Positions 1 to 52,469 of a stretch of DNA of 64,000 nucleotides are shown here, one piece after another. The stretch spans positions 267,571 through 331,570 of IMG/VR virus record IMGVR_UViG_3300017917_001123; one strand, given 5' to 3'. The first letter of the stretch is position 1. Every line of letters begins with the position of its first letter. The stretch is from a virus. The notes beneath the pieces are model-generated. The model was not told the origin of the DNA and did no database searches. It saw only the letters and a list, made by a program, of their open reading frames with translations. The translations under genes and the position numbers were made by a program.

Positions 1-39
1 TAATACCTTTGATCATATAATTAATTATCGTAAAAAATT

Positions 40-744
40 ATGACACAAACTAAGTTTGAATATTACTACAATAACGTCCCTGGTCACGGATTGTGTCGTA
101 ACAACCTTGTCTATACAAGTCTAATCTCAGCTGACAAGAAAACATTCTGCCAACACTATGTTAATGATCCTGTGTATCACATGGGACAGAATACAGTAGA
201 TCCTGCGCTAATGAATGACAAATGGGCTCGAGAGCTATGTTGGCTTAATCATATGGCAACGTGGTATCCTGACCTTGTTCCTGAGATACAAGACATTGAC
301 TTATTAAACAAGAAGATTTATTTGCGTGTTGACGGGGTTGACTTCTGGGAACGTGCTGGATGTCTGACAGAAAACTTTGATAATGTTCTTCCTGACTGGC
401 AGGAACAAATGCTTAACATTATCAAAGTACATCACAACGAAGGCATGTTTAAGTACAGCATGCATCCTAGCAGTTACTTTGTTGTAGACGGCAAACTTAA
501 GAGCATTAATTATTTCTTCACATACAGCAAAGATGAAGGTCCTATTAAAATATCAGATCATCAGAGTCATCTAAGCGAGATACGACAAGCAGATCTGCGT
601 AAGAAAGTCGAAGCACTGGGCATGGAGTGGGATGCTGTTACTCCATTGAAAGACTTAGAGTACTTGTGCTGGGAAAGTTTTAGAACAAACTATCCAAACG
701 AGTTTGTAAAAAAGGTACACAATCTATGTACGACATACTTGTAA
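40..744 (+). CDS. hypothetical protein
   Basis: 234-aa ORF with coding-like composition and no recognisable motif. Confidence 0.45.
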   Translation: MTQTKFEYYYNNVPGHGLCRNNLVYTSLISADKKTFCQHYVNDPVYHMGQNTVDPALMNDKWARELCWLNHMATWYPDLVPEIQDIDLLNKKIYLRVDGVDFWERAGCLTENFDNVLPDWQEQMLNIIKVHHNEGMFKYSMHPSSYFVVDGKLKSINYFFTYSKDEGPIKISDHQSHLSEIRQADLRKKVEALGMEWDAVTPLKDLEYLCWESFRTNYPNEFVKKVHNLCTTYL

Positions 745-1466
745 ACGAATCTGATAAGTTCCACAACGATTACAACCAATGGCGTGTTAATCGTGTGCGT
801 AAGATGGAACAGGTGCTAGGCAAGGAATGGTTTAAGGGCAAGCGTGTACTAGAGCTTGCCTGCGGACAAGGAAACATTAGCGCATATCTAAAAAGCCTAG
901 GAGCAGACGTAACCGCTAGCGATGCTAGGGCGCAACATTTAATACATGTTGAAAGCACGTACAATATTGATACGTTGCTTATTGATCAGGACAAGCCTTG
1001 GACATTAGATGAACACTACGATTTGATTGTACACTTTGGTGTATTATATCATTTAAAGAACTGGAAGCAGGATTTGTCCTGTGCTCTTAAACACACAGAC
1101 ATGATGTTCTTAGAAAGTGTCGTAGCAGATACAGACGATGCGTACTTTGAACATCAGCTCGCTGAAGCAGAAGAAGGCGGACAGAATGCTTTTCATGGTG
1201 TCGGTACTGTTATGAGTGCGAGTAATGTAGAGCGTGTAATAGAAGAACTGGGTTACGAGTGGATTAGGTTTGATGATCCTGATCTAAACTTACCTAATAG
1301 AAGATTGTATCAATACGATTGGACCGTTAGTAACAACATCGATGGGTACGAGTCCGCAACATCGTTTGAAGACAAGCCATTATACGGCGGCCGCCGACTG
1401 TGGCTTATTAAGAAATCTTTCTCCAACGATCGGCTAGGGCATATGAGCCTTGGTGTACGTGCATAG
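726..1466 (+). CDS. class I SAM-dependent methyltransferase
   Basis: Motif I 'VLELACGQGN' followed by an acidic residue ('DVTASD') typical of a Rossmann MTase. Ends in TAG. Confidence 0.6.
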   Translation: MYDILVNESDKFHNDYNQWRVNRVRKMEQVLGKEWFKGKRVLELACGQGNISAYLKSLGADVTASDARAQHLIHVESTYNIDTLLIDQDKPWTLDEHYDLIVHFGVLYHLKNWKQDLSCALKHTDMMFLESVVADTDDAYFEHQLAEAEEGGQNAFHGVGTVMSASNVERVIEELGYEWIRFDDPDLNLPNRRLYQYDWTVSNNIDGYESATSFEDKPLYGGRRLWLIKKSFSNDRLGHMSLGVRA

Positions 1467-2022
1467 ATATCGCCATACGTCCGCCGTCGACAGGTTGTTC
1501 TTCTACTTCGTGCCACAAGAATCCGGGCCATGCTAATAAGTCACCTTCTTCTGGTTGTATAGTAACTAGCTTTTGTCTATACGGAGCCATTCCTGTTTGC
1601 CCTTCAAAAGGATTGTAGAAAGTAATTGCGCTACTGCCTGCGGGCATTTTGTGATAGTAAGTCATTACCATCTCAGTCGACCCGTGTGCGTGTCCGCCTA
1701 GCTTAGACCCTTTAAAGAACTGATTAATCCAACTGCGCTCTATAGCAATATCGCAGTCTTCGTAGCCAATTTCTCTCCACAGATCTTTCATGACGCTTTC
1801 GGCCCATTTGCGAAAAGGATAAACACTAGGTAAGTTCATGATGTCGTTAAACTGACGAATGGTAGTGCTGTATTCGCCCTTAGCAGTATCAATTTTTCTA
1901 TCCTCTGGTACATTGTTGAGGATATCGTTGATCTCTTTATCAAATGCTTCGCCTAGTAAATGACGATCCTGCCATTTGGTTTTGGCAATGATGACAGGAA
2001 AAACATTTTGTGCTATAATCAT
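1408..2022 (-). CDS. hypothetical protein, possibly 2OG-Fe(II)-oxygenase-like
   Basis: 204-aa ORF. 'HAHGSTEM...WHEVEEQ' His/acidic cluster is weak evidence for a cupin/2OG fold. Its 5' end overlaps the promoter for the divergent gene. Confidence 0.35.
   Translation of the reverse strand: MIIAQNVFPVIIAKTKWQDRHLLGEAFDKEINDILNNVPEDRKIDTAKGEYSTTIRQFNDIMNLPSVYPFRKWAESVMKDLWREIGYEDCDIAIERSWINQFFKGSKLGGHAHGSTEMVMTYYHKMPAGSSAITFYNPFEGQTGMAPYRQKLVTIQPEEGDLLAWPGFLWHEVEEQPVDGGRMAISMHVHQGSYALADRWRKIS
1991..2019 (+). promoter_or_regulatory. sigma70-type early promoter ATGACA-17-TATAAT
   Basis: -35 ATGACA (1991-1996), 17-nt spacer, -10 TATAAT (2014-2019), 22 nt upstream of the 2041 ATG. Confidence 0.45.
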
Positions 2023-2040
2023 GATGTAAATACTTAGCTT

Positions 2041-2592
2041 ATGACATACACCATTAAACCCTATTCCGATGACTTAGACCTAACAGAGTTTTACCAAGAA
2101 GCAGAGCGTCGTGGTTTTGTCAATAATGCTAACAAGAAGATGCTAGTTGATAGCATTTCAAAAGAGCGAGAGTGGTGCGTGTGGGTTCTTTACTACAACG
2201 ATAAAGCCGTAGGCACAGTAGGCGCACACACTCTAGATATGTTTCCAAACGCTGTCCGTATTTGTGTAAGGACTTGTGCATTTACTGATATGTTGCCTAC
2301 TCCTAGTCTTCGTACTCGAGTAGGCATCACAAGTCATCAGCACGTTACAGCACAGTTCTTTATGCCTATTTGTATCGAATGGGCAGGTAACAGAGATATG
2401 TATATTACCAGTCATGATAGTGATGTAGGAACACAGCGATTAGTTCATACTATCTGGGGACCTACATTAGAGATGACTGGTGTGTTGTCCAACGCGGGTG
2501 CTTATGATTATAGAGGACACAGACAAACGTTCTGGAAACTAAACAAGGATGTATTCCTTGAGCAGTTAAACAAGGAACCTAGATGGAAATAA
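2041..2592 (+). CDS. hypothetical protein
   Basis: 183-aa ORF. Its stop overlaps the next start (ATGGAAATAA). Confidence 0.45.
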   Translation: MTYTIKPYSDDLDLTEFYQEAERRGFVNNANKKMLVDSISKEREWCVWVLYYNDKAVGTVGAHTLDMFPNAVRICVRTCAFTDMLPTPSLRTRVGITSHQHVTAQFFMPICIEWAGNRDMYITSHDSDVGTQRLVHTIWGPTLEMTGVLSNAGAYDYRGHRQTFWKLNKDVFLEQLNKEPRWK

Positions 2593-3551
2593 GAATTCCT
2601 CTTAATACGATTACAAAGTTTGGTCAGCAGACAATGTTAGATCGCCCTTTATTCAATGTAAGTTGGATACTAGGGCGATTCTGTAATTACAAGTGTTCTT
2701 ACTGCTGGCCTTATGCTAGATCAGACAAGTTAGACTTTTTGCCTATAGAAACTTATACTAAAGTTATAGACGAAATAAAGCGGCAAGCCAGGGCGAACGG
2801 CTTCACAGAGTTTCACTGGAGTTTTAGTGGAGGCGAACCTACAGCTTTTAAACAGTTGCCAGAAATCTTTAAACACATTGAACGCGATCTTGTAAGTCCT
2901 TATCAGAGTGTTCATATGACTACTAATCTAAGCCCGGGAAGCAATTGGTGGAGAAACTGGTGCTTAATTACAAGTCCTTTACAGCGTAGAAGTATTACTG
3001 CCAGTTACCACGAAGAGTTTGCTAAAGAGCAAGAGTTTGGTGATAAGTGTCTACAGCTAATGTATGAAAGTGTTTTTGTAACAGTTAACCAAGTAATGGT
3101 TCCTGAGCGTTTCTATGAGCTGTATGAACGTTGTGCTAGACTGCGTCAGCGTGGTATCAACGTAACTCTAAAGCCACAGACAAATCCTACAGCTACAGCC
3201 GTTGTTGACGGATACACTGAAGATATGATTGCTATAATGAAGAAAGATTTTCAACAGCAGGCAAACGGAGAACAGCTACATCAAATACGACTAACTGACG
3301 GAAACAATACCTATTTTATTGATCAAGCAGAACGGTTTAATGCTTTAGGATTCAACAAGTTTAAAGGATGGAATTGCGTTGCGGGTTATCAAAGTGTTGT
3401 AATTAGAGGACAAGAAGTTAAACGTAGTCATAGTTGTCACGAAGATTCTTTAGGCACGGTTGATAATTTTACTTTGTTTAAAGAATTAAAGCCCTGTATA
3501 ACTGAGTCTTGTATGAGCTCTGCGGACAGTAAGTTACCTAAGACTAAATAG
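2583..3551 (+). CDS. radical SAM protein (with extra C-terminal Cys cluster)
   Basis: CxxxCxxC motif 'FCNYKCSYCWP'. C-terminal cysteines ('CVAGYQ...SHSCHED...KPCITESC') suggest a SPASM/twitch auxiliary cluster. Ends TAG immediately followed by TAA. Confidence 0.7.
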   Translation: MEIRIPLNTITKFGQQTMLDRPLFNVSWILGRFCNYKCSYCWPYARSDKLDFLPIETYTKVIDEIKRQARANGFTEFHWSFSGGEPTAFKQLPEIFKHIERDLVSPYQSVHMTTNLSPGSNWWRNWCLITSPLQRRSITASYHEEFAKEQEFGDKCLQLMYESVFVTVNQVMVPERFYELYERCARLRQRGINVTLKPQTNPTATAVVDGYTEDMIAIMKKDFQQQANGEQLHQIRLTDGNNTYFIDQAERFNALGFNKFKGWNCVAGYQSVVIRGQEVKRSHSCHEDSLGTVDNFTLFKELKPCITESCMSSADSKLPKTK

Positions 3552-3576
3552 TAAAAAGAAACGGTTATTCTGTCCT

Positions 3577-4299
3577 ATGATCAATACACTACGAGAAAAA
3601 ATACTGAGCTGGACCCCTGAGTTAGCAAATTCTATGTACAATAACGTACCTAGAGTAAGTGATCTCGGAGGCATGATCTACGAAAAAACAGACAATGGTT
3701 GGTTTCTTTACTCAGTAGAAAAAGCCGCATACTACGACTTAAATGGAGAAAGTTTTATTCTAGAACAGAATTCTCCAGAAATAGAAGAATCTTTAAACGT
3801 ACAAAAAACCTATTCTGATTATGCTGACGTACATAATCTTGTTAAGATAGAAAAGCCTGTAGAAATACAACAAGTTAATATCTACGGAAGAACGTACATT
3901 TATTACAAAATGGTAAGACCGTATAATACTCACGGAATACCACAGCTTAATATGATTTACGTCCCTGAAGATCAAAAAGCCTCCGCAGTTCTTGAGCTTT
4001 CAAAAATAAACTTTAAGAAAATGGATGAGCTGTTTCAGTTAATCGATGCTTGTAACGGAACATTGTATCCTAAAGAGCTTAACACTGAAAATCTACATTA
4101 TGATCCGGCAACTGACAATTACTTTTGGGCGGGTGATTTACTATTTGTTAAACCAAGACAAGAGTCAATTGATGCTCATGTATTAATGATTCCTAATTTA
4201 AGTTATTATGTAACTAAGGTAGTAGGAAAACAGGTAGATCTACAGAGCGCAATTACTAACTACGTGAATACAGAATGTTCAATACTTCAACTTCCTTAA
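3577..4299 (+). CDS. hypothetical protein
   Basis: 240-aa ORF, no motif recognised. Confidence 0.45.
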   Translation: MINTLREKILSWTPELANSMYNNVPRVSDLGGMIYEKTDNGWFLYSVEKAAYYDLNGESFILEQNSPEIEESLNVQKTYSDYADVHNLVKIEKPVEIQQVNIYGRTYIYYKMVRPYNTHGIPQLNMIYVPEDQKASAVLELSKINFKKMDELFQLIDACNGTLYPKELNTENLHYDPATDNYFWAGDLLFVKPRQESIDAHVLMIPNLSYYVTKVVGKQVDLQSAITNYVNTECSILQLP

Positions 4300-5060
4300 T
4301 CAGTTATAGAATTAAGTCTAGCAATGGTTCAGTTCTTTTTGAAGGACTAGTACCTTACGGACTACTGCCATTTGTTCAAAAAGCATTTCTTACAAATCAA
4401 GATAGATTAATGGAGTTTGAAGTAGCAACAACATCTCACGTAATTTCTAGAAACTTTTCAGACTTACCGTCAAACACTCAATACGATACAACCAATCCAG
4501 CACACATTTCAAACAGAATGTATCAGGATTTGATTACAAGCAAAGAATTAACACGCATTGCCTCTTTGAATAATGCGGCATTTGAAACTTGGCAAGCACA
4601 GTTAGATGCTGAGAGAGTTCAACAAGAACAAAACGCACTCAATGAAGTAGCCACTCAGGCACAGACATTATACGAGCAGTCCTTATTAAATCAACAACAG
4701 ATTAGTGAAGAATATGCTCAACATCTAAGAGACGAAGCATACAGATTAGACATGCTCCGTGCTCAAACTGTTACACAGATAGCAGTTGATCCTACAACCA
4801 GCGTCAGTGCTCTAATGAGCGAAGTTGGACATAACTCGGATGTACAGCGACAAATTGCCGCGTGTATGCGAGCAAACAAAGAAATTACTAAACTAGTTCT
4901 AGCTAGCACATCAACATTGTGGAATACCAGCTACGAAATTATGGATGTTGTTGCTATACAAGCGGCAACGGATAACGAAATTGCTGATCAATTAGTTGGT
5001 AAGATTCCAGAAACAAGTCTTTTATATCAAAGCCTACAACGTCTCGGTATTCTTAGTTAA
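4275..5060 (+). CDS. hypothetical protein (Gln/Glu-rich coiled-coil region)
   Basis: 261-aa ORF. Central 'QAQLDAERVQQEQNALNEVATQAQTLYEQSLLNQQQ' segment. Confidence 0.45.
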   Translation: MFNTSTSLISYRIKSSNGSVLFEGLVPYGLLPFVQKAFLTNQDRLMEFEVATTSHVISRNFSDLPSNTQYDTTNPAHISNRMYQDLITSKELTRIASLNNAAFETWQAQLDAERVQQEQNALNEVATQAQTLYEQSLLNQQQISEEYAQHLRDEAYRLDMLRAQTVTQIAVDPTTSVSALMSEVGHNSDVQRQIAACMRANKEITKLVLASTSTLWNTSYEIMDVVAIQAATDNEIADQLVGKIPETSLLYQSLQRLGILS

Positions 5061-6528
5061 AGACTTTGACACCGTAGGTATTTTCCCATTCTCTAGAATC
5101 CTCTTCGTTGTTAACCATAGGCTTGCCTTTGATGTTAAGGCTTGTGTTTAACAGTACAGGACACCCTGTAGTTTTATACCACATAACTAGTAGGGCATGA
5201 AACTCAGGATTCATTTCTTTCGTGACAGTTTGTACACGACTAGTCCCGTCAGCATGGACGATAGCAGGAAATAGCTCAGGATTCCGGCAACGAGCGACCA
5301 TTTGCATATAAGGACTGCTACCACTAGGGATATCAAAGTAATAGTGAGCCAGCTCAGCCAAAACTGCCGGCGCAAAAGGTCTGAATTCTTGTCGTTGTTT
5401 AATTCCATTTACTTTATCCTTCATCTCTAAACTTCTAGGGTCGGCTAATAGACTTCTATTACCCAATGCTCTTGGTCCAAACTCTGCTGGCCCTCTTGCT
5501 ACTCCACAAATGCCTCTGGTCATTAAGAAATGTAATATCTTAGCGTTGTTATGTTTTGTTGGGATGTTGTATCCCAAGTATGGTGTGTAGTCGATACGTT
5601 GTTTTGTTTTTGCCAATACACTACCAATTGCGCTTCCGCTATCGCCCGGAGCAGGCATAATCCAAACGTTATCAAAATACTTGTAGGCAATAGGATTTGC
5701 TGAACAGTTCAAAGCACAGCCGCCCATAAAGACTAAATTCTTGCTAGGAACACATTGTCTAGCATACTGTAACACACGTTCGAATAGTAGTTCATATACT
5801 GCCTGCGTTGCTGCCGCAATATCAAACATATCCTGCTCTGTAGTCAAATCAGGACGCCAGTCTTTACAACCTTTGTGAAAATTTCTTTTAAATGAGACTA
5901 GTCCATTAGTTTCACTAAACGGAAAATGAATAAAATCATTTAACATTGTTGTGAATAACCTCTTAGGATCACCATATGCGGCCATGCCCATGAGAATGTA
6001 CTCTTCCTCGTTGGGCTTCAATCCACACCGTTGTGTCATTGCGCTATACCACAAGCCGATACTTTCTGGATACTCTAAACTGAATACCTTTGTAAGCTCG
6101 TCATCCTTGCCCTGCCAAATAGACAGCGTATCATATTCTCCGATGGCATCGATAACTAGAACGCAGGCTTCATCAAACTTGCTAGTGTAGTAGCCTGCTG
6201 CCGCATGGCTATAATGATGTGCTACATATTCTATTGCTGTAGGAAATATGCGTTTTGATACATATTTCTTTACATTGTTTTCTCCCCACATCCATCCTTG
6301 ACCTGCTTCTAGTTGACGCATAGTTTTAAGGAACGGACGTTCGTACCAAACAACTTTGTCTGGCGTGAGTCCTCTGTTATGTAGGTAGTAAGTTAAGTCA
6401 GAGTCCAAATCTGGATCGTTTTTAATTCCAGACCACCGCTCTGTTTCTGTGGCAAATACTAGCCGATCGTTATCAAATACCGCAACTGCGGCATTGTGAC
6501 TGTTAGCTGATATTCCCCAAGTAATCAT
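5053..6528 (-). CDS. carbamoyltransferase (NodU/CmcH/NovN family)
   Basis: N-terminus 'ITWGISANSHNAAVAVFDNDRLVFATETERWSGIKND' is the hallmark of the carbamoyltransferase N-terminal domain. 491 aa, typical length. Confidence 0.8.
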   Translation of the reverse strand: MITWGISANSHNAAVAVFDNDRLVFATETERWSGIKNDPDLDSDLTYYLHNRGLTPDKVVWYERPFLKTMRQLEAGQGWMWGENNVKKYVSKRIFPTAIEYVAHHYSHAAAGYYTSKFDEACVLVIDAIGEYDTLSIWQGKDDELTKVFSLEYPESIGLWYSAMTQRCGLKPNEEEYILMGMAAYGDPKRLFTTMLNDFIHFPFSETNGLVSFKRNFHKGCKDWRPDLTTEQDMFDIAAATQAVYELLFERVLQYARQCVPSKNLVFMGGCALNCSANPIAYKYFDNVWIMPAPGDSGSAIGSVLAKTKQRIDYTPYLGYNIPTKHNNAKILHFLMTRGICGVARGPAEFGPRALGNRSLLADPRSLEMKDKVNGIKQRQEFRPFAPAVLAELAHYYFDIPSGSSPYMQMVARCRNPELFPAIVHADGTSRVQTVTKEMNPEFHALLVMWYKTTGCPVLLNTSLNIKGKPMVNNEEDSREWENTYGVKVFN

Positions 6529-6609
6529 TTGTAAATGTAAGGATCCATTTTACGCAGTTTCTTTATTTGCTGTCTGCGTTTATACCATCTATACGGTGTT
6601 AGCAACCAA

Positions 6610-7290
6610 TCAAGTATTCTTTTCATATTGTTCTCTTAACCAATTATAATTATTAATCAACAACAGGGCTTCTGGGTTATCTTGATTGTACTCTCCGTAG
6701 GACCTTCCTGCTAGTGCGCCACGAATAGCGTCGTGTCCAAATGGTTTGTCCTCTCCTACAGAGCACCATACCTTAAGACGTATAGAAGTTTCCGTGTCTA
6801 CTTGATTGTTAATTGTTTTGCTGGCTAGCTTACAACATTCTCTAAACCCGCTACGCCATGCGCTAAATGCGTCTGTGTTAAATGCTGTGTTGTTACTAAC
6901 TTCGGGCATAGCATTAAACCTAGTACCGATGCTAGTTGTCATGTCGGGCTTGCTAGTATCCATCTCCAGTGTTTGCTTTTTTGGTAAAAGTTTAACACCG
7001 CCGTATCCATATTCTAGTCCGTTAACAGGATTACGACTGCGCCATACATGAACAGCATCGTAGTCCCATTCGGGTGCCTGATAGCTAAAGTCAAAGCTGT
7101 CTAATACATCAGCGTCGCCGTCGATTACCCAAAACATTTCTGTAAACGATTTCTTTGCGGCGGCAAGGTGTGCGTTATGAATACCTTCTACATCCTTAAC
7201 CCGCTTTAATAAAGGAAAGCGACTCTTTAGCTTTTTGTAGTTTTCTTCAGCATTTGGTTCTCCATAGCTGATAAAGATCATATCATACAT
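6610..7290 (-). CDS. nucleotide-diphospho-sugar-transferase-like protein (paralog of 9814..10689)
   Basis: 'IFISYGEPNAEENY...WVIDGDADV' matches 'VFISYDEPNAEMNY...FVTVDADNIV' in the paralog. The DxD-like motif suggests a GT-A fold. Confidence 0.45.
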   Translation of the reverse strand: MYDMIFISYGEPNAEENYKKLKSRFPLLKRVKDVEGIHNAHLAAAKKSFTEMFWVIDGDADVLDSFDFSYQAPEWDYDAVHVWRSRNPVNGLEYGYGGVKLLPKKQTLEMDTSKPDMTTSIGTRFNAMPEVSNNTAFNTDAFSAWRSGFRECCKLASKTINNQVDTETSIRLKVWCSVGEDKPFGHDAIRGALAGRSYGEYNQDNPEALLLINNYNWLREQYEKNT

Positions 7291-10689: not shown

Positions 10690-11233
10690 AAACAGAAATA
10701 TCCTTAGGACCTTGATAAGGTAACGACATAGTTCCTTTTGTAATAAAAGGTTCAAGAGTAATCTCAAAGCTATCGTATATAGCGAATGGATTACCTTTGC
10801 GAGTTACATATAGATTGTACACTTTATCTTTAACTAAAGTCAATCGGTCGATGTTCTCTTGATTGGTAATTGTATCAAAGTAATTAGGATCGTAAATTAA
10901 GGTTAAACCTTTATCAGTTGCTTCGGTAATAATTCTTGCGCTGGCAATGAAATTTTCAAAACTACGTAATGCTCTAACAACTTCGTCTTCTGTGTTCAAG
11001 ACGATCTGACTCTCAAAAATTTCTTTTCGTCTAAATCCTACAATGTTACTATCAACTATTAACGGATAGTATTCGCTAGGTATTTTCTTTAAGGTAAAGA
11101 ACGGTTCCAATAGACTGAAATCGTCTACTGGTAAGACTGTATATCCTTCTGCCTCTTCAAATTCAAACCCGATGCCCTTGATAACTAGCGTATCGGATTC
11201 AAACTTTACATAACGTCTTTGTACTTGTTCCAT
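10670..11233 (-). CDS. hypothetical protein
   Basis: 187-aa ORF. Confidence 0.4.
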   Translation of the reverse strand: MEQVQRRYVKFESDTLVIKGIGFEFEEAEGYTVLPVDDFSLLEPFFTLKKIPSEYYPLIVDSNIVGFRRKEIFESQIVLNTEDEVVRALRSFENFIASARIITEATDKGLTLIYDPNYFDTITNQENIDRLTLVKDKVYNLYVTRKGNPFAIYDSFEITLEPFITKGTMSLPYQGPKDISVYVVAKN

Positions 11234-12069
11234 ACTAATGACTCTAATGTGTTGATGAAGTTATCTGTAATAAGATCCTTCTTTGTGTAATGTAGGATAT
11301 CGGACTGAGCGTATGGCCCAATCTTTATATTTAGGTCCCCGTCATAGTAAAACGGAATACGTTCTGTCCATTCGTAGTCTGTTGCGCCAAGCCCTTGACT
11401 TCTGCCCTTCATGTGTGTAAAGCGAGGAAATGGTACAGCAGGATTACTCATATCTTCTACCATATCTAACATCTTAGCAGTTAGCGCACAGGCTTCGTCT
11501 GTTGGGATGCTGTCAAACTTGTAATCCTCTAATTGTTCTTTCCACAGCTCTGGATAATCAGTTAGTGCTTCTAGTACACGAAAAAACTTTGTAGTTTCTC
11601 TACTTTGTTTGAAGTATAACCAGCCACTGTAGAAGTCTGGCAATTTGTTTTGATCAACGACATATCTGTAATAACGATCTGTCATTGTTTCTCCTCTGAA
11701 CGTCATAGGGCGGGTAGCAACATACAAGTCGTGTTTTCTAACAAACGGAAGCCAATGACTAACATCGCTTAGGAACAGCAGGTCGCTATCTAAGAATATA
11801 GTTTCTTTATAAGGCGTGTGCTCATAGGCTCTGCTTCTGGCATTCATTCCTTTAGGGCCATCGTAATTAATGACGGTATCAAATACCCATTTTAGTTTTA
11901 AGTTTTGAACAACCTTTGGAGTAGTTGTTGCGATGCTTACAGAATTAAATCCCTGCGGTTGTGTTAGTTTAATTGTTAGCGCAGTAGCATAGGCTAATCT
12001 AAGATAGTCTGTAGTCTGCGTGTTGTTGGCTATCATAAAGTAGCCTAGGTTAAACTCTTTTGAAATCAT
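11206..12069 (-). CDS. hypothetical protein with DxD motif (glycosyltransferase-like)
   Basis: 'IFLDSDLLFLSD' DxD-type motif. 287 aa. Confidence 0.4.
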   Translation of the reverse strand: MISKEFNLGYFMIANNTQTTDYLRLAYATALTIKLTQPQGFNSVSIATTTPKVVQNLKLKWVFDTVINYDGPKGMNARSRAYEHTPYKETIFLDSDLLFLSDVSHWLPFVRKHDLYVATRPMTFRGETMTDRYYRYVVDQNKLPDFYSGWLYFKQSRETTKFFRVLEALTDYPELWKEQLEDYKFDSIPTDEACALTAKMLDMVEDMSNPAVPFPRFTHMKGRSQGLGATDYEWTERIPFYYDGDLNIKIGPYAQSDILHYTKKDLITDNFINTLESLVWNKYKDVM

Positions 12070-12866
12070 TTGACTAACTCCATGAGCTTTGGTAACTTAT
12101 CTAGCAAGTCGAATTTATTCATGTAGTGTATGTCTTGCCCTTGCGTTTTAACAAGCGTTTCTCCACACATTAGGACTGTCAGTGTTTGATCTTTAACCTG
12201 TAGAATCTCATCTTTGTCTGTAAAGATTATAGGACTTGGTAAGGCAGTATAAAACTTATCAAGACCAAACCCGCCCATAGTATGACAAGCAACACTAAAT
12301 GCGTAATCGTTTCTAAATCTTCTTGTATCGAACTTATAGAGTGCGCCGTAGTAACTCCAGTTTTCTCTAACATGGTCAACAAGTTCAAACAGGGCTTTAA
12401 CTTCAGGTGTCTTGTTAAAAATAATGTTTGTAGCCCAGAGCATAGGAATACTAGCAGGGTCTAGCATTAGTGCGCCTAGTGAATTGCCCAGCATGTCGTT
12501 CATACCTTCGCAAATCATAAAGTCTCTATCTGCTTCTAAGTAAGGCTTCAAGCAACTGCTTTGAACTAAGAAATCGCTGTCAATCACTAGTGTTCTGTCA
12601 TAAGGGCTTAGTTCGTATGCCGAACTTCTGTTGGTGTTCTTAAACGAAATGGTCTTACCGGCAAGTGTTCTAGTATTGTCTGTTTCCACAGTAGTAACAA
12701 TCAGTCCATCAAATACGCCCACATCTGTTGCGTCCAAGGTCTTGCTGTCTGTAACAAGCGTGACAGGAATGTTAAGATGTTTCTTAACAAGGCCTGCGGC
12801 TAAAACAGCTTGAGGGCCGTATGCTATGTCGCCATCAAAGGCGAAAATGACGCACCCTGTTGTCAT
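12066..12866 (-). CDS. hypothetical protein with DxD motif (glycosyltransferase-like)
   Basis: 'LVIDSDFLVQS' DxD-type motif. Start overlaps the previous gene's stop (ATGA). Confidence 0.4.
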   Translation of the reverse strand: MTTGCVIFAFDGDIAYGPQAVLAAGLVKKHLNIPVTLVTDSKTLDATDVGVFDGLIVTTVETDNTRTLAGKTISFKNTNRSSAYELSPYDRTLVIDSDFLVQSSCLKPYLEADRDFMICEGMNDMLGNSLGALMLDPASIPMLWATNIIFNKTPEVKALFELVDHVRENWSYYGALYKFDTRRFRNDYAFSVACHTMGGFGLDKFYTALPSPIIFTDKDEILQVKDQTLTVLMCGETLVKTQGQDIHYMNKFDLLDKLPKLMELVK

Positions 12867-13204
12867 AGGTCCACCAGTTTGGCTGCGGTTCGTTTTTGTT
12901 TGATTTGACTGTAGTCTGTCATGTATCTGTTTGTTACTTCAAAATACACACCTACAATCTTGTTGAAGAAATCCTGTAGGTTTTCAATTTCTACAGGATA
13001 TTCGTTGTCGTCTAAGATAACGGCAGATTCATAATCTTTAATTGAACTGATAAAACCAATCAGTTCTCTGCCTACAGTGAAAATGCCTCCGTTGTGTGCG
13101 ATAACAAGTTCAGCAAGTGCTTTGTCTTTTAAGCGTTGTCTTTCTATTCCTAGTGTCTGTCTATAGTTTGCGTGTTCGATTGCTTGTTTAAGCCGATCAT
13201 CCAT
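12863..13204 (-). CDS. hypothetical protein
   Basis: 113-aa ORF, translationally coupled (ATGA overlap). Confidence 0.4.
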   Translation of the reverse strand: MDDRLKQAIEHANYRQTLGIERQRLKDKALAELVIAHNGGIFTVGRELIGFISSIKDYESAVILDDNEYPVEIENLQDFFNKIVGVYFEVTNRYMTDYSQIKQKRTAAKLVDL

Positions 13205-13213
13205 GTGTGCCTC

Positions 13214-14095
13214 TTAGTAGTTGTTTGGTTTTGTCTGTGAATAAGGATAGTAGATTGCTACGTTATGATATATGTTACCATTAACATAGTCCGGACCGCC
13301 TGCGATGCCCGGGTGATCATCGACATAATACACGGTCATAGTAATAGCAGTTCTTTGTTTAACGTCTGTGTTATTATGCCACAGATATATTTGTACATAG
13401 TTTGCTGTATAAGGACTTTCTGGACTATAAATTCTAAATGCTTCGTTAGCGCCTGTGTTTGATGTTCCATAAACACCACCTGATCCCCAGCTGTTGTAGA
13501 ATGTTCCGCCCCAGGCTGCGCCCGATTGGAACATCCCCGTACGAGTCAGAACAATAGTTCCCATGTTTGCTAGCAAGTTTGACCATGTTGCGTTTTGGCT
13601 AGTGCCGTCGCCCCCTGATCGACTTCCTGTAAATTGTAGTCTGCCACCGCCATTCCAGAAACCCCTGTATGCGGCATTGTCTGCCCAAGTAACTGACACA
13701 GATCCTAATGGAGTTAATACTCCGTTCCATGCTCCGCCATACCCATATGACGGGCCAGCAACATAAGCTAGCTGACCTGTACTGATAGCACCCCTATTAG
13801 AGTAAGCAGTATCAACACGAGCAGAGATTGTTGACAAATCAGTTGAAGTAATAATCGCCGTATCGGCTCTTGTTGTAAGGTCTGAGTTAGCACCTGTTTG
13901 TAATAGGTATGCTTTGTTAACGTCGGCTCTTAGATTGTTCCATTGAACACCGGTAATTTTTTCATTATCGGCTACCGTTGCCGCAGAGTAAGTTGTGTTA
14001 TAGCCAAGATCGTTAGTAGTACCATCTGGTGTGCTTAACACACTACGCATTTTAAGAATAACTGGGTTCCAGTCTTCGTTTTGAATGATTGCCAT
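13214..14095 (-). CDS. hypothetical beta-rich protein, paralog A
   Basis: 293 aa, Gly/Ser/Thr/Asn/Tyr/Trp-rich. Shares 'DLGYN', 'RxDxAY(S/A)xR' and 'SGGxGxSQxxSW(T/S)N' blocks with the adjacent gene. Confidence 0.5.
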   Translation of the reverse strand: MAIIQNEDWNPVILKMRSVLSTPDGTTNDLGYNTTYSAATVADNEKITGVQWNNLRADVNKAYLLQTGANSDLTTRADTAIITSTDLSTISARVDTAYSNRGAISTGQLAYVAGPSYGYGGAWNGVLTPLGSVSVTWADNAAYRGFWNGGGRLQFTGSRSGGDGTSQNATWSNLLANMGTIVLTRTGMFQSGAAWGGTFYNSWGSGGVYGTSNTGANEAFRIYSPESPYTANYVQIYLWHNNTDVKQRTAITMTVYYVDDHPGIAGGPDYVNGNIYHNVAIYYPYSQTKPNNY

Positions 14096-14099
14096 AATT

Positions 14100-14999
14100 T
14101 TATCCTAATGTAGATCCTAGCTGTGTAGCTGTTGGTGTTTTATTATACGAGTAATATGTGTTAACAGAAAAACCTAATGTGCCGTCGACTAGGTCTGGAC
14201 CTTGCCCTGTTGCTACGTGTGGGTCTAGTAATACATATTCGATCTCAAAACCTGTTGCAGTAAGAACATTATTACCGCCATATGGTCTAATATAAATGGT
14301 AAAGCTATTAGAAGTGTAGTTTGCGTCACTGGCAAGTATTCTAAAAGCAATACCAGCGTTTACACCAGTTTGTCCATTCTGTAACAAATTATATAGCCCG
14401 CCGTTTGGAAAACTACCGTTACGTGATTGATTTTGTTGAATGGCAGAGTTACCACTGAATACTAAAATTCCAATAGCCTGGAAGATATTAGTCCAGGAAG
14501 AAGTTTGACTTGAACCACTACCTCCTGTCATTGATCCGCCAATGGTAATAAATCCGCCTAAGTTAGCCCACCCACGAAACTCTGCGTTTGATCCCCAATC
14601 GAATCTTACTTTATATTTGTGCTCGGTCTTCCATGTGGAACCGTTAACATAATTATCTGATGTTGTAATTTGTAATTTTCCAACACCGGCAGTAGTTCTG
14701 CTAGCATAGGCAATGTCAACTTTTGCTGATACTTCTGTTAAGTCGTCTGTTTCGATTAACTGACTTCTGTTGTAGATAGCTAGTCCAGTAGACAATCCTG
14801 TTTGATGTTCAATTGCTAGGTTAACGTCTTGAATTACTAGGTTAAGGTCTTGTCCAACAACTTTGGCGCCTTGGACGGCAGGCAAACTAGCAACAGCTAG
14901 GTTGTATCCGAGGTCGAACACCGTGCCGCTAGGTGATCCGATAATTGATGCTATTTTGTTCTGTACTAAATTGAACGCTTCGTCCGTTACTTTTGCCAT
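14100..14999 (-). CDS. hypothetical beta-rich protein, paralog B
   Basis: 299 aa. Collinear similarity to 13214..14095 ('FDLGYN', 'AKVDIAYASR', 'GGSGSSQTSSWTN'). Confidence 0.5.
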   Translation of the reverse strand: MAKVTDEAFNLVQNKIASIIGSPSGTVFDLGYNLAVASLPAVQGAKVVGQDLNLVIQDVNLAIEHQTGLSTGLAIYNRSQLIETDDLTEVSAKVDIAYASRTTAGVGKLQITTSDNYVNGSTWKTEHKYKVRFDWGSNAEFRGWANLGGFITIGGSMTGGSGSSQTSSWTNIFQAIGILVFSGNSAIQQNQSRNGSFPNGGLYNLLQNGQTGVNAGIAFRILASDANYTSNSFTIYIRPYGGNNVLTATGFEIEYVLLDPHVATGQGPDLVDGTLGFSVNTYYSYNKTPTATQLGSTLG

Positions 15000-15010
15000 C
15001 AGTTGCTCCG

Positions 15011-15331
15011 TTATACCCTAAACGACTCGCCGCATCCGCAACGATCTCTTTCATTAGGGTTCTTAAATTCAAATCCTTCGTTTAGCCCGTTCCTTACATA
15101 ATCAACAGTTAGGCCATCTACATAAACATGGCTTTTGGGATCAACAAAAATGCTGAATCCGGTTTTTTCAAACACTAAATCGGAACTGTCGGGCTCGTCT
15201 ACATATTCTAACACATAAGCTAGCCCTGAACAGCCAGTAGTTTTAACGCCTATCCGAATGCCCATTCCTTTCCCTCTCTTTTGTAGGTTTAACAAGAATT
15301 TATTGTAGGCTTCAGTTGTTAAGTTGACCAT
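15011..15331 (-). CDS. Fe-S cluster assembly protein IscA/HesB/ErpA family
   Basis: 106 aa. 'GCSGLAY' and C-terminal 'CGCGESF' are the three conserved Cys of A-type carriers. Confidence 0.8.
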
Positions 15332-15353
15332 AAAGTGTTAAAATAAATATTAT
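15324..15353 (+). promoter_or_regulatory. sigma70-type promoter TTGACC-18-TATTAT (rightward, iscU)
   Basis: -35 at 15324-15329, -10 at 15348-15353. Overlaps a leftward promoter in the same AT-rich stretch. Confidence 0.35.
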
Positions 15354-15377
15354 ACGCATATTTAGCGAGTAAAGCAA
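15349..15377 (-). promoter_or_regulatory. sigma70-type promoter TTGCTT-17-TATAAT (leftward, minus-strand gene array)
   Basis: On the minus strand, TTGCTT (complement of 15372-15377), a 17-nt spacer, and TATAAT (complement of 15349-15354). Confidence 0.35.
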
Positions 15378-15397
15378 CGGCTTAAAAGGAGTCTGAT

Positions 15398-15796
15398 ATG
15401 GCATACAGCGAAAAGGTAATTGATCATTATGAAAACCCCAGAAATGTGGGTAGTTTTGATAAGTCTGATACTTCCGTTGGTACTGGTATGGTTGGTGCAC
15501 CTGCTTGCGGCGATGTTATGAAATTACAAATAAAGGTGGACGATGCTACAGGTATTATTACAGATGCGAAATTTAAAACGTATGGCTGTGGATCGGCTAT
15601 CGCAAGTTCGAGCCTTGTCACAGAGTGGGTCAAAGGAAAAACTCTTGACGAAGCCGGAGCAATCAAAAACAGCCAAATTGCCGAAGAATTAGCCCTTCCC
15701 CCGGTAAAGATTCACTGTTCAATTCTAGCAGAAGATGCTATCAAAGCCGCAGTAGCGGACTACAAGGAAAAACATGGAAGCAATAACAGTAACTGA
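15398..15796 (+). CDS. iscU: Fe-S cluster scaffold protein IscU/NifU-like
   Basis: '[13 protein letters not shown]', '[11 protein letters not shown]' and '[12 protein letters not shown]' are the three conserved Cys motifs of IscU. Confidence 0.85.
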
Positions 15797-16100
15797 TGCG
15801 GCTTATGACAAGATAATTGACGTACTTGCCGAAGAAAACAATCCTAATATTGCTCTTAGGGTATTTGTTCAGGGCGGCGGCTGTTCGGGCTTCCAATATG
15901 GTTTTACCCTAGACGAAGAACAAAACGAAGACGACTTTGTTATTGAAGGCAAAGTTAAGATTTTAGTTGACTCGATGAGCTACCAGTACCTTGTAGGTGC
16001 TACTATAGATTACAAAGATGAAATCTACGGTAGCCAATTTACTATTAAAAATCCCAACGCCCAATCAACTTGTGGCTGTGGCTCTAGTTTTTCCGTTTAA
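15774..16100 (+). CDS. Fe-S cluster assembly protein IscA/HesB family (second copy)
   Basis: '[11 protein letters not shown]' and C-terminal 'CGCGSSFSV'. Confidence 0.8.
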
Positions 16101-16108
16101 GGATATTA

Positions 16109-17359
16109 ATGAAGATAGCTATACTAGGTGTAGGTTCAGCAGGTTCTATTTCAATTGCCCAACTTTGTGCTCATGTTCCTAAAGGTTGTAAAGTAGTCAG
16201 CATACACGATCCATCAATTCCTATGTTTCAAATAGGCGAAAGTACAAATGCTAATATGGTATCTGTTCTTGAGCAAGCATGTCACTTTAGTTTCACTGAA
16301 GATCTTCCAGCAATGGAAAGTACAATCAAATTCGGTAATAAGTTTATGAAGTGGCGTGACCGAGATTGGTTCAACCCTTTGCTCGATGGTGGCATCGGAA
16401 TACATTTCAACAACTTTAAATTAAAAGAATTTGTAATCAGTCGAGTTAAAAAACATTGGCCTGATAAATTTGAAATGATAGAGGGAAACGTTTCTAATTT
16501 AGTGAACCATGGAACGTATGCCGACGTTGTAGTTGACGGACAGACCCATAGGTTTGATTGGGTAATTGATACACGAGGAACACCAACCAACTGGAGCGAA
16601 TACGAAATTGTAGACGGCATTTCGATTAATAGCGGAATTATTCATACAGTAAACGAGCCAGGAAACTTTCAATATACAGAACATCTAGCAACAGCAAATG
16701 GCTGGATGTTCGGAGTACCACTAACATCTCGTCATACTCACGGTTATCTCTTTAATGATAAAATTACTTCTAAAGAAGAAGCCATTGAAGATATGAAAAA
16801 ATATTTTGGCACAGACGATATTGGCCGTAAGAATGCTCCGGTACACTATCAATTTAAGAGTTACTTTGCTAAAAAAGTTCTAGAAGGTAGAGTCTTAAAG
16901 AACGGCAACAGGGCTAACTTCTTTGAACCAATTAGCGCCAGTGGAATATTCTACTATATCTATACAAACTATCTTCTAATTGATTTGTTTAAGAAAAGAC
17001 ACAACGAAGATGAACTAAATCAAAAATTTAGAGATTTCGGAAATCAGTTGGCAGATCTTATTTGTTTCTTTTATCACGGCGGAAGTACTTACGATACACC
17101 ATTTTGGAAATATGCCAAAGAAAACGCAAGACAGCGACTTTTTAGAAGTCCGTTTTTTAGAAAAGCGTTAATTGACTGTTTTGTCAAGGGCGAAGCAGGG
17201 TTACCACATTATGCTGACCCGTGGATCTTTAGTGGATATCATCTTCATTTAATCGATAAAAAGTTTGGATATAATTACTTCACAGATCCTGTAAAAAATC
17301 GGCAAGCAGTAGCAGAAATTGATGCCAACTTAAAGTCTCAAGGAAAAATAATATTATGA
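16109..17359 (+). CDS. flavin-dependent (tryptophan-type) halogenase-like protein
   Basis: N-terminal dinucleotide-binding 'IAILGVGSAGSI'. 'QIGESTNA' resembles the halogenase 'IGVGEAT' motif. 'ANGWMFGVPL' resembles the 'GWxWxIPL' motif. Confidence 0.5.
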   Translation: MKIAILGVGSAGSISIAQLCAHVPKGCKVVSIHDPSIPMFQIGESTNANMVSVLEQACHFSFTEDLPAMESTIKFGNKFMKWRDRDWFNPLLDGGIGIHFNNFKLKEFVISRVKKHWPDKFEMIEGNVSNLVNHGTYADVVVDGQTHRFDWVIDTRGTPTNWSEYEIVDGISINSGIIHTVNEPGNFQYTEHLATANGWMFGVPLTSRHTHGYLFNDKITSKEEAIEDMKKYFGTDDIGRKNAPVHYQFKSYFAKKVLEGRVLKNGNRANFFEPISASGIFYYIYTNYLLIDLFKKRHNEDELNQKFRDFGNQLADLICFFYHGGSTYDTPFWKYAKENARQRLFRSPFFRKALIDCFVKGEAGLPHYADPWIFSGYHLHLIDKKFGYNYFTDPVKNRQAVAEIDANLKSQGKIIL

Positions 17360-18326: not shown

Positions 18327-18340
18327 ATCTTTGCTATAAT
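18312..18340 (+). promoter_or_regulatory. consensus sigma70-type early promoter TTGACA-17-TATAAT
   Basis: Perfect hexamers: -35 at 18312-18317, -10 at 18335-18340, 30 nt upstream of the ligase ATG. Confidence 0.55.
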
Positions 18341-18369
18341 ATACATATAGACACTGAAAAAGGATCCAA

Positions 18370-19659: not shown

Positions 19660-19660
19660 G

Positions 19661-52392: not shown

Positions 52393-52469
52393 ATATAAAC
52401 TTTGAAAGGACTACATCATGGCATATAGAGCTAAAAATGGTAGCGTAAAGGCAGCGGCACGTAGAGCAT

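Follow-up and report, generated by a model that had tools for sequence, protein, structure and literature searches.

A composite island in a jumbo phage and its conserved nine-gene core, a candidate glycan-biosynthesis module

The carbamoyltransferases NovN and TobZ carbamoylate sugar hydroxyls. In phages, an enzyme of the NodU/TobZ family carbamoylates 5hmC in DNA, and the DNA-modifying clade lies within 3 kb of a thymidylate-synthase homologue (PF00303), a MazG-type pyrophosphohydrolase and a dCMP deaminase (PMC8670742). Phage-made nucleotide sugars can also serve to glycosylate DNA with more than one sugar (PMC13326640). The stretch of 64,000 nucleotides analysed here (the window) is part of a 331,570-bp contig, i.e. 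of a jumbo phage, and was originally predicted to hold one modification island. This island is real yet composite, and is not one conserved unit: the synteny of 6610-14999 bears the prediction out, while the rest of the region is not widely conserved. All of the domain assignments hold, namely the methyltransferase, two radical SAM enzymes, NodU/TobZ-type carbamoyltransferase, IscA-IscU-IscA set, halogenase-like flavoprotein, 2OG oxygenases and SDR. The array had been described as contiguous and mostly minus-strand; it is minus-strand only over 5053-15331, the methyltransferase and one radical SAM gene being on the plus strand. Gene spacing is operon-like, and no transmembrane segments were found in any island protein.

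Nine minus-strand genes form the conserved core. Four encode transferases, two of them GT8-like and two GT-A; the others encode an N-terminal-twitch radical SAM enzyme, a member of a 397-aa family, a 113-aa protein and a pair of fibre-associated paralogs. Each of the nine is kept in 29-32 of the IMG/VR loci with enough flanking sequence (32-34 per gene), with order and strand conserved, and the block comes straight after tail-fibre genes. Of 50,697 GenBank phages, only the Ralstonia jumbo phage RsoM2USA has the core (ORF348-355), with the tail sheath and tail tube genes directly upstream; order and strand are again kept there, over ORF348-358. This previously unstudied block is carried by one cultured phage and by hundreds of uncultured giant phages. 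Given this synteny in relatives, the suggestion that the genes are acquisitions scattered across other genomes fails for the core. The window itself offers a point against a link to fibres: here roughly 7 kb separate the block from the nearest tail genes, which are encoded on the other strand. The 187-aa protein at 10670-11233 (minus strand) is variable, having homologues only in the close sublineage and being replaced elsewhere by an unrelated gene of about 200 aa. In other lineages, a variable slot, occupied in the window's sublineage by the lineage-specific genes described below, is filled by nucleotide-sugar enzymes: an SDR epimerase/dehydratase, a UDP-glucose/GDP-mannose dehydrogenase, a B12-radical SAM, a methyltransferase or a 2OG oxygenase.

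At the head of the core are two structural-type proteins, encoded on the minus strand at 14100-14999 (299 aa, 18% Ser+Thr, no Cys) and 13214-14095 (293 aa), which are 32% identical to one another. The family of the former directly follows tail-fibre genes in relatives; that of the latter is upstream of the radical SAM gene in 29 of 32 loci, and its AF2 model (pLDDT 93.5) combines a helical bundle with a beta-sandwich. RsoM2USA ORF355 joins the whole domain of this second family (hhalign 97.8%, E 9.5e-13) to an N-terminal motif of tail fibres. The sheath ORF359 and ORF356 have been identified in RsoM2USA virions, and ORF355 is not among the proteins reported from mass spectrometry of these virions, which covered 10 major bands only (PMC8504454). 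The adjacent 113-aa protein (12863-13204, minus strand), present in 31 of 32 loci and as RsoM2USA ORF354, has no match in Pfam, PHROG or PDB; it is possibly a fibre chaperone or adaptor.

Four or five DxD or GT-A-like proteins had been proposed, of which four, in two pairs, are supported. The GT8-like copies at 12066-12866 (GT-A fold, with the DxD motif 'DSD') and 11206-12069, both on the minus strand and each in 31 of 32 loci, are assigned by the same profile, which matches glycogenin-1/2 with E 3.7e-5, the alignment covering the nucleotide-sugar half with its DxD; the second copy also matches PHROG 1903 (E 5e-5). The other pair, likewise on the minus strand, had been recognised as paralogous, and rightly so: the proteins at 9814-10689 (291 aa, invariant D64xD66) and 6610-7290 (226 aa, DGDAD, in 30 of 32 loci) are 34% identical and have the same invariant motifs, and the latter is 45% identical to RsoM2USA ORF348. 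The start of the former is at 10689, in agreement with a 100% identical database protein of 291 aa; a TTG at 10767 was rejected. As this pair has a fold match and no sequence-family match, its role is read from context. The fifth candidate, the 397-aa protein at 7283-8476 (minus strand), lacks both a DxD and any match in Pfam, PDB or NCBIfam, and is a putative transferase by context. Its family comprises 8,323 representative clusters, is downstream of the radical SAM gene in 32 of 34 loci, with three to four paralogs in some, and includes a member fused to a 2OG-FeII_Oxy_3 domain. Five families of the block (the fibre-associated pair, the 113-aa, 187-aa and 397-aa proteins) are without known relatives, so their roles rest on context.

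The core radical SAM enzyme (8460-9821, minus strand) matches the N-terminal-twitch (N_Twi) model NF033640 over its full length with 313 bits (NCBIfam cut-off 170), and Pfam with only 23 bits. It has the motif ECNFKCGYC (Cys137/141/144), GGEP and four invariant N-terminal cysteines (22, 41, 83 and 86), is very strongly conserved (71-76% identity in at least 596 stretches of IMG/VR), and belongs to a family of 5,233 database clusters. Its bacterial homologues adjoin GT2, GT28-like, SGNH and carbamoyltransferase genes, and in Bdellovibrio sp. HCB2-146 the neighbour is a fibre of 1,959 aa that has an S74 chaperone domain, an adjacency found at just this one locus in Bdellovibrionota. The second enzyme (2583-3551, plus strand; 322 aa, four C-terminal cysteines) exceeds the PF04055 cut-off with 47.7 bits and has the motifs FCNYKCSYC and GGE, while no NCBIfam model reaches its cut-off. 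Both motifs lie in genuine AdoMet-radical cores. The proposed paralogy of the two is nevertheless rejected, as BLASTP aligns just the 14-residue cluster motif. The plus-strand enzyme has at least 591 relatives in IMG/VR (69-75% identity). Most of them belong to other loci, rich in radical SAM genes, and the usual home of the enzyme is such a locus next to an IF-1 gene; it adjoins the core in the window and in loci L085 and L168, with a distant (26%) homologue in L037.

The carbamoyltransferase (5053-6528, minus strand; 491 aa) matches Carbam_trans_N (E 1e-43) and Carbam_trans_C (E 3e-51). Most core loci lack it, and only in the close sublineage does it adjoin the core (1 of 34 loci). The family is nonetheless linked with the N-terminal-twitch enzymes, which are found upstream on the same strand in 25 of 46 other IMG/VR phage loci, and also paired with it in RsoM2USA L001 and in 9 of 77 bacterial loci. 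In the 358-kb relative L086, the transferases and carbamoyltransferase are present but the core radical SAM and 397-aa genes are missing, implying that the radical step is dispensable or replaced there.

The methyltransferase, plus-strand radical SAM, Fe-S trio and halogenase are specific to the window's own sublineage (L080, L085 and L086), where they accompany the core in an arrangement stable over 55-94% protein identity; of 34 loci elsewhere, 0-1 have them there. The lineage-specific accessory stretch at 40-5060 (plus strand) holds the class I SAM methyltransferase (726-1466, plus; Methyltransf_23 E 2e-13; TehB), conserved only in L085 and in 0 of 34 other loci, the plus-strand radical SAM, a solid minus-strand 2OG-Fe(II) oxygenase (1408-2022; PF13759; 93% identical to its L085 homologue) and four genes without a family match (40-744, 2041-2592, 3577-4299 and 4275-5060), which are syntenic in L085 and partly so in L080 and L086. 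On the other side of the core are an IscA/HesB-type carrier (15011-15331, minus; PF01521 E 2e-18), in the same position in L086, an IscU scaffold with the LPPVK motif (15398-15796, plus; NifU_N, 187 bits), a second IscA (15774-16100, plus; Fe-S_biosyn) and a flavin-dependent halogenase-like protein (16109-17359, plus; Trp_halogenase E 8e-31), 42% identical to the S-SSM5 'tryptophan halogenase' annotated in cyanophage genomes. Beyond these are two 2OG oxygenases below the Pfam cut-off (17356-18075 and 19899-20507), a DNA ligase (18370-19659) and a nucleotide-sugar-type SDR epimerase/dehydratase (20736-21536, plus; Epimerase E 3e-39), whose family directly follows the core radical SAM in several other lineages and is ORF358 of the RsoM2USA block. 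The description of the Fe-S set as dedicated finds no backing: outside the sublineage IscU and the second IscA do not adjoin the core, IscU or halogenase is near it in 0 of 34 other loci, and L086 retains the trio although its block lacks the core radical SAM and 397-aa genes. On the other hand, the first IscA heads the tightly packed minus-strand array, 11 nt from the following gene, so that a supporting role is plausible. Nothing ties the halogenase-like gene to the pathway, and it has no link to the core outside one sublineage.

The explanation that we favour, with about even confidence, is a composite glycan-biosynthesis island building and tailoring its product in the cytoplasm, probably to decorate virion fibre proteins, in which the core is an ancient, widespread jumbo-phage module travelling with tail-fibre and tail genes. 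A virion or fibre glycan with a carbamoylated sugar was among the roles first suggested, and is the one best supported by comparative genomics. A short glycan would be assembled from nucleotide sugars by the four soluble transferases (two GT8-like, two of GT-A fold), probably with the help of the 397-aa family. The N-terminal-twitch enzyme would perform a radical step on a sugar, of the epimerisation, oxidation or dehydration type, and where an SDR directly follows it a deoxygenation pair is plausible. Lineage-specific tailoring enzymes would diversify the product, in this phage through an O-carbamoyltransferase, presumably acting on a sugar, that has a functional tie with the radical SAM family; the methyltransferase, plus-strand radical SAM and 2OG oxygenases may contribute as well. 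A virion fibre protein is the most likely acceptor, the two Ser/Thr-rich paralogs heading the same operon being prime candidates. What the analysis shows directly is the identity of the genes, their folds and synteny, and which families co-occur; sugars as substrates of the radical SAM enzyme and carbamoyltransferase, and fibre proteins as acceptors, are inferred. IscA-IscU-IscA may help load clusters onto the radical SAM enzymes, as a lineage-specific addition outside the module.

It is quite possible, if short of an even chance, that no common pathway extends beyond the core, and that the methyltransferase, plus-strand radical SAM, 2OG oxygenases, Fe-S trio and halogenase have accumulated independently, as auxiliary genes, in a plastic genome region. 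Beside the core they are missing from 33-34 of the 34 other loci, they are on the opposite strand to it, the halogenase and 2OG genes resemble cyanophage-annotated genes, and the plus-strand radical SAM normally resides elsewhere, as described above. Against this stand the stable arrangement within the sublineage, the IscA heading the core operon, and the co-occurrence of the plus-strand radical SAM and N_Twi families in 59-64 of 80 other loci.

The transferases and tailoring enzymes could instead act during infection on host LPS, capsule or EPS intermediates, blocking superinfection or changing the receptor. O-antigen and capsule loci typically hold GT8 and GT2-like enzymes, carbamoyltransferases and SDRs, marine T4-like phages carry LPS-type gene sets as well as annotated carbamoyltransferase genes of the island enzyme's family in GenBank, and the variability in tailoring genes resembles serotype variation. 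This appears unlikely, as the island has no initiating phosphoglycosyltransferase, flippase, polymerase, ligase or any membrane protein, and the block is contiguous and co-directional with tail and fibre genes across very large evolutionary distances; the same core is also found in phages of very different environments, presumably with different hosts, whereas host glycans differ. Hypermodification of DNA, with transferases, radical SAM and carbamoyltransferase decorating a hydroxymethyl- or hydroxy-pyrimidine (e.g. glycosylated/carbamoylated 5hmC) against restriction, has the phage precedents cited at the outset, and would suit a set of wholly soluble proteins. The ligase is of a type enriched on modified contigs, and such ligases flank the radical SAM/carbamoyltransferase pair in RsoM2USA L001 and 5 of 54 carbamoyltransferase loci. 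We consider it quite unlikely: no PF00303, MazG-type or dCMP deaminase gene could be detected in the annotated ORFs of 1-22 kb, the window's one observed thymidylate enzyme is a ThyX 43 kb away, the core is in tail/fibre rather than nucleotide-metabolism clusters, and homologous radical SAM, GT2 and carbamoyltransferase sets are found in bacterial chromosomes. Highly unlikely is a soluble small molecule, such as an aminoglycoside- or nucleoside-like glycoside or free oligosaccharide, made during infection and acting on the host or competitors. The twitch-type radical SAM enzymes BtrN, NeoN and AprD4 do act on aminoglycosides, the carbamoyltransferase has natural-product enzymes as its closest characterised relatives, and a halogenase-like flavoprotein is nearby; but the island lacks a scaffold-forming enzyme (cyclitol synthase, NRPS/PKS) or exporter, the halogenase is unlinked to the core in other lineages, and the tight linkage to fibre genes and the fibre-associated family would be left unexplained.

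A glycan for virion fibres remains our preferred reading. The closest solved relatives of the carbamoyltransferase in PDB, NovN (4e-61), GdmN and TobZ, are natural-product carbamoyltransferases, and phage carbamoyltransferases flanked by glycosyltransferases are also found on contigs of unmodified DNA (Yang et al., PMC8670742).

Every domain assignment in the original prediction holds: the methyltransferase, both radical SAM proteins, the carbamoyltransferase, the 2OG oxygenase, IscU, both IscA proteins, the halogenase-like protein, the SDR and two weaker 2OG oxygenases were all recovered. The second radical SAM protein (8460-9821, minus strand) matches NF033640, the N_Twi family, over its full length (313.1 bits against a cut-off of 170, model positions 1-398); in Pfam alone it scores 23 bits, under the cut-off. 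Across 12 sequences, down to 36% identity, C137, C141, C144 and G207-G208-E209-P210 are invariant, as are the N-terminal C22, C41, C83 and C86, which are predicted to be the auxiliary-cluster cysteines of the NF033640 type. The first radical SAM protein (2583-3551, plus strand) belongs to the superfamily (PF04055, 47.7 bits against a gathering score of 29.5), with the motifs FCNYKCSYC and SGGEP, and reaches no subfamily cut-off in NCBIfam, the best match being viperin-like at 32.9 bits against 180. The description of these two proteins as paralogous is not upheld, as BLASTP aligns only 14 residues around the CxxxCxxC motif (E = 0.003) and the first scores 27.6 bits on NF033640. The carbamoyltransferase (5053-6528, minus strand) has Kae1-like N-terminal and YrdC-like C-terminal domains (150 and 174 bits, both above the Pfam cut-offs) and the HHxSH motif, present as AHHYSHAA; its closest solved relatives are NovN (4e-61), GdmN and TobZ (4e-40), while a score of 146.8 bits against a cut-off of 1000 rules it out as a NodU orthologue or equivalog. 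The halogenase-like protein (16109-17359) matches Pfam Trp_halogenase at 107.8 bits against 21 (model positions 199-404) and retains GVGSAG; the motif region reads GWMFGVPL, deviating from WxWxIP, and there is a weak match to the monooxygenase QhpG.

Four to five DxD or GT-A-like proteins had also been proposed, and two pairs of these stand. The proteins at 9814-10689 and 6610-7290 are 34% identical and have the GT-A fold and DxD motif; no named glycosyltransferase family could be assigned to them from Pfam, NCBIfam or PHROG, nor was there a PDB-profile match with E < 1. The pair at 11206-12069 and 12066-12866 is GT8-like, with a profile match to glycogenin (E = 3.7e-5) over approximately the first 100 residues only, including the DxD, and no match to Pfam Glyco_transf_8; in sequence, the invariant H260 and K264 of this family could correspond to the GT8 C-terminal His/Lys motif. 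By contrast, the 397-aa protein at 7283-8476 (g7283) contains no DxD. It has no detectable relatives of known function, and comparison of two alignments of its family (31 and 64 sequences) with PDB profiles gave chance-level matches only, as did the GT-A pair, the fibre-associated g13214 family and the 113-aa protein g12863. A Pfam scan of long g7283 homologues for fusion partners returned one 2OG-oxygenase fusion and one TPR, and no transferase domain. In the 713-aa metagenomic protein P0354, a g7283-family member is fused to a P4H-type 2OG-Fe(II) oxygenase domain, and several phage lineages have a stand-alone 2OG-FeII_Oxy_3 gene immediately after a g7283 paralog. By analogy, this pairing is reminiscent of hydroxylase-glycosyltransferase pairs acting on proteins.

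The island had been presented as a contiguous, mostly minus-strand array, a description that fits only the minus-strand run from 15331 to 5053, in which neighbouring genes overlap or lie 4-81 nt apart. At least 596 relatives of the second radical SAM protein are present in IMG/VR at 71-76% identity, and the protein database holds 5,233 clusters. Considering only loci with enough flank (n = 32 upstream or n = 34 downstream of this gene), the upstream same-strand neighbours are highly constant: the 113-aa protein and both GT8-like genes are each found at 31 of the 32 loci, the GT-A genes at 30-31 and the g13214 family at 29. Downstream, the g7283 family is present at 32 of 34 loci, the carbamoyltransferase and the first radical SAM gene at one each, and the methyltransferase, IscU and halogenase at none. 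Beyond the window, the extended arrangement is confined to three loci, all of the window's sublineage. One of these, a 358-kb relative (L086), has retained the Fe-S trio, the halogenase, the transferases and the carbamoyltransferase, with the second radical SAM gene and g7283 absent from between its two GT-A genes. In other lineages, the slot following the radical SAM gene is filled by an SDR epimerase/dehydratase, a UDP-glucose/GDP-mannose dehydrogenase, a B12-binding radical SAM protein, a methyltransferase, a P4H-type 2OG oxygenase or extra g7283 paralogs. The pattern is one of a conserved transferase core (6610-14999, minus strand) accompanied by variable nucleotide-sugar-type tailoring enzymes. 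The idea of one island is partly retained: its synteny is real and its suggested role plausible, the unit itself being smaller than proposed and made up differently. The complete core block was also found, in phage order, in MAGs labelled 'Neomarinimicrobiota' (PBPT01000016.1, a 335-kb contig) and 'Haliscomenobacter'; both probably represent genomes of jumbo phages that were placed in bacterial bins.

The Fe-S genes (15011-16100) are a lineage-specific addition. IscU scores 187 bits and has the LPPVK motif, and both IscA proteins have the CGCG motif. It is unusual to find a full IscA-IscU-IscA trio next to radical SAM genes: an IscU-like match of any kind was found in only 17 of 50,697 phage records, in a few of which it is 76-79% identical to that of the window. 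As no cysteine desulfurase, chaperones or ferredoxin could be found in the first 22 kb of the window, the set would depend on the host. The trio had been thought to mature the radical SAM enzymes; an obligate partnership was rejected, as the trio is found at none of the 34 other core loci and is kept in L086 without the second radical SAM gene. Nevertheless, because one IscA gene heads the core operon, these proteins may help cluster loading.

The association of the core with tail fibres is observed both in uncultured lineages, where tail-fibre proteins (PHROG matches) are encoded immediately upstream, and in Ralstonia phage RsoM2USA, the only cultured phage to match the window proteins across most of their length. 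ORF348-358 of this phage, all annotated as 'hypothetical protein', carry the core in the window's own order at 30-46% identity: an SDR, a g13214-domain protein, a g12863-like protein, two GT8-like proteins, a 184-aa gene, a GT-A protein, the N_Twi radical SAM and a second GT-A protein. The block directly adjoins the tail sheath (ORF359) and tail tube (ORF356) genes, both of whose products were identified in virions. Transferases beside structural genes, as expected for virion glycosylation, are found in both settings. Unlike the window, neither of the RsoM2USA regions searched (L001 and L090) has a g7283 homologue by tblastn, nor homologues of the Fe-S trio, halogenase, methyltransferase or first radical SAM protein. 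Two further differences from the window are the direct contact of the block with the sheath and tube genes and the fusion of the fibre-associated domain to the N-terminus of a fibre: ORF355 contains the whole g13214-family domain (hhalign 97.8%, E = 9.5e-13) joined to an N-terminal motif common to tail fibres (36% identity, E = 1e-12). In the window, g13214 and its paralog g14100 are Ser/Thr-rich (18-19%) and lack Cys, with a confidently predicted fold (pLDDT 93.5) of a helical bundle and beta-sandwich that has no PDB counterpart; their homologues are uncharacterised phage proteins only. Given this fold, the adjacency to fibres in relatives and the fusion in ORF355, they are most likely fibre components.

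While rarely beside the core, the carbamoyltransferase has a partner of its own. Its family comprises 76 loci in IMG/VR at 45-63% identity, and at 25 of the 46 with enough flank an N_Twi radical SAM gene lies upstream on the same strand, often with a g7283-like gene also present. The same pair occurs at 9 of 77 bacterial loci and at a second locus of RsoM2USA (L001), where a further radical SAM copy is two genes from a 47%-identical carbamoyltransferase; the intervening genes were considered as GT8 or GT-A relatives, and hhalign against both profiles showed no relation. Bacterial homologues of the second radical SAM protein are concentrated in Bdellovibrionota (33-58% identity) and adjoin GT2, GT28-like, SGNH and further radical SAM genes. 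Bdellovibrio sp. HCB2-146 (NZ_JBLEQP010000001.1, 10-15428) encodes a 1,959-aa phage-fibre-like protein that ends in a Peptidase_S74 chaperone domain; the next few genes include those for an N_Twi radical SAM, a GT2, a second radical SAM of N-terminal-SPASM type and a further GT2. An iterated HMM search of the 77 bacterial loci recovered the S74 domain here only, along with four phage loci, so the fibre link in Bdellovibrio is anecdotal. The first radical SAM protein normally resides in other, radical-SAM-rich loci. One such cluster, a stretch of 10 kb in an uncultured phage (IMGVR_UViG_3300018050_000401, approximately 8989-18947), encodes its homologue, an SGNH-like protein, a SPASM-type radical SAM, two N_Twi-like proteins and two paralogs similar to the first radical SAM; an IF-1 gene lies upstream in 51 of 80 loci of this type.

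The window is part of an uncultured jumbo phage, with genes for rIIA, tail and virion proteins, ribonucleotide reductase, ThyX, ligase and IF-1, a permuted tmRNA and a suppressor-type tRNA. Two of the proteins it encodes have 100%-identical counterparts on a contig of 331,570 bp. Megablast of its first 22 kb detected no nucleotide relatives among 50,697 GenBank phage records. For the tmRNA (52447-52836, plus strand; tag ANDEVYALAA), the best Rfam score comes from beta_tmRNA, the permuted type of betaproteobacteria (152.6 bits), which hints at a betaproteobacterial host and fits with the only cultured relative being a Ralstonia phage. The tRNA at 62231-62305 (plus strand) has a CTA anticodon of amber-suppressor type; ARAGORN labels it Pyl, and Rfam confirms a tRNA (65 bits). 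At the edge of the region, an HNH endonuclease gene (21505-22038, minus strand), probably a homing-type insertion, shares sequence with the 3' end of the oppositely oriented SDR epimerase gene. An ORF without family match (19448-19921, plus strand), overlapping the 3' end of the ligase gene by approximately 210 nt, probably either has a misplaced start or does not encode a protein. Just 5' of the DNA ligase gene lies a perfect 12/12 sigma-70 consensus with extended -10 (18312-18340, plus strand), and just 5' of the gene at 2041-2592 an 11/12 match (1991-2019, plus strand); in the scan for promoters and terminators, counts equalled the shuffled expectation and promoter-like matches overall were not above chance. 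Elsewhere, a second set of sugar-tailoring type, a hexapeptide-repeat acyltransferase (42530-42982) and a Methyltransf_24 protein (42984-43568, plus strand), lies directly upstream of a gene for a tail-fibre-like protein with Mtd_N and pectate-lyase folds (43610-45238, plus strand).

From the observed gene identities, folds, synteny and co-occurrence, a pathway can be sketched in which the transferases would build a short glycan from nucleotide sugars, the radical SAM protein would carry out a radical step on a sugar, and the carbamoyltransferase, possibly with the methyltransferase, first radical SAM protein and oxygenases, would tailor the product. The machinery would be soluble, because no island protein has a membrane segment, and the acceptor would most likely be the fibre protein encoded at the operon head. 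We tentatively propose, as a possibility that may well prove incorrect, that this is a protein glycosylation system which depends on a radical SAM enzyme and serves tail or adhesive fibres specifically, common to an abundant, almost uncultured jumbo-phage clade and, in simpler form, to predatory Bdellovibrionota; the N_Twi radical SAM and the carbamoyltransferase paired with it would produce a modified sugar that has not been described before, and lineage-specific tailoring would diversify the fibre glycan as a determinant of host range or shielding.

The most serious rival, although distinctly improbable, is that the island enzymes hypermodify DNA, as a phage enzyme of the carbamoyltransferase family carbamoylates 5hmC (PMC8670742). 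That clade is defined by PF00303, PF01503 or PF00383 neighbours within approximately 3 kb, namely a thymidylate-synthase homologue, a MazG-type pyrophosphohydrolase or a dCMP deaminase, whereas carbamoyltransferases on unmodified contigs are flanked by glycosyltransferases (PMC8670742). None of the three families occurs among the annotated ORFs of the first 22 kb, and only ThyX, 43 kb away, is seen in the window; the carbamoyltransferase instead neighbours transferases, among them a GT-A protein, a radical SAM and uncharacterised genes, as in the unmodified class. Remodelling of the host envelope is unlikely, given an island devoid of membrane machinery, and synthesis of a small molecule very unlikely, there being no scaffold enzyme and the linkage to fibres being left unexplained. 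It is quite possible that the plus-strand accessory genes are independent acquisitions, in keeping with the usual residence of the first radical SAM gene elsewhere.

In a large group of jumbo phages that are abundant in the environment, the core block ranks with the most conserved non-replicative modules: it has at least 596 IMG/VR matches, and each of the two core proteins searched has thousands of clusters at 90% identity. All core genes are nevertheless 'hypothetical', and most of the families have no Pfam or PDB relative. Were fibre glycosylation correct, a radical-SAM step would enter viral glycobiology, NF033640 and several orphan families, one with more than 8,000 representative clusters, would gain a function, and many unexplained phage carbamoyltransferases a context; fibre glycans could then be a variable layer of host interaction in phages. 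Because a phage in culture, RsoM2USA, has the block, the question is directly testable.

No published description of a radical-SAM-containing, fibre-linked module of orphan families was found in the literature. Virus-encoded virion glycosylation is known from the capsid glycan enzymes of chlorovirus PBCV-1, the fibril glycosylation clusters of mimivirus and capsid and tail glycosylation in mycobacteriophages. The present system resembles these in encoding GT-A/GT8-type transferases and nucleotide-sugar tailoring enzymes beside structural genes, in fold matches that include PBCV-1 A64R and mimivirus R699 and R655, and in a glycan composition that would vary between lineages. It differs in having a radical SAM protein and, in the window lineage, a carbamoyltransferase, in transferase families without sequence-level relatives among characterised enzymes, and in being known from genes alone. 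Glycoproteins have been detected in virions of jumbo phage XacN1 (PMC5852040), from which the core block is absent. The NCBIfam name of NF033640, 'twitch domain-containing radical SAM protein', carries no biochemical function, and its phage clade is unusually conserved (71-76% identity). Further likeness is to cyanophage-type auxiliary genes, which include 'tryptophan halogenase' homologues (the VirX1 family), PF13759 2OG oxygenases and phage Fe-S cluster genes; the halogenase-like protein is 42% identical to its S-SSM5 homologue.

Sugar tailoring in aminoglycoside and aminocoumarin synthesis employs the radical SAM enzymes AprD4 (with its reductase AprD3), BtrN and NeoN and the carbamoyltransferases TobZ and NovN. 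Similarly, the window combines an auxiliary-cluster radical SAM protein, an SDR and an O-carbamoyltransferase of the TobZ/NovN family, all of which would have a glycoside as their substrate. The carbamoyltransferase family (PF02543 and PF16861) also includes the 5hmC-modifying enzyme described by Yang et al. 2021 (PMC8670742), which is likewise from a phage. However, the radical SAM protein is related to AprD4, BtrN and NeoN only at the superfamily core and its twitch domain is N-terminal, while the carbamoyltransferase is shorter than its aminoglycoside and aminocoumarin relatives (491 aa against 576-700 aa). The setting also differs, being one of phage structural genes rather than a natural-product cluster.
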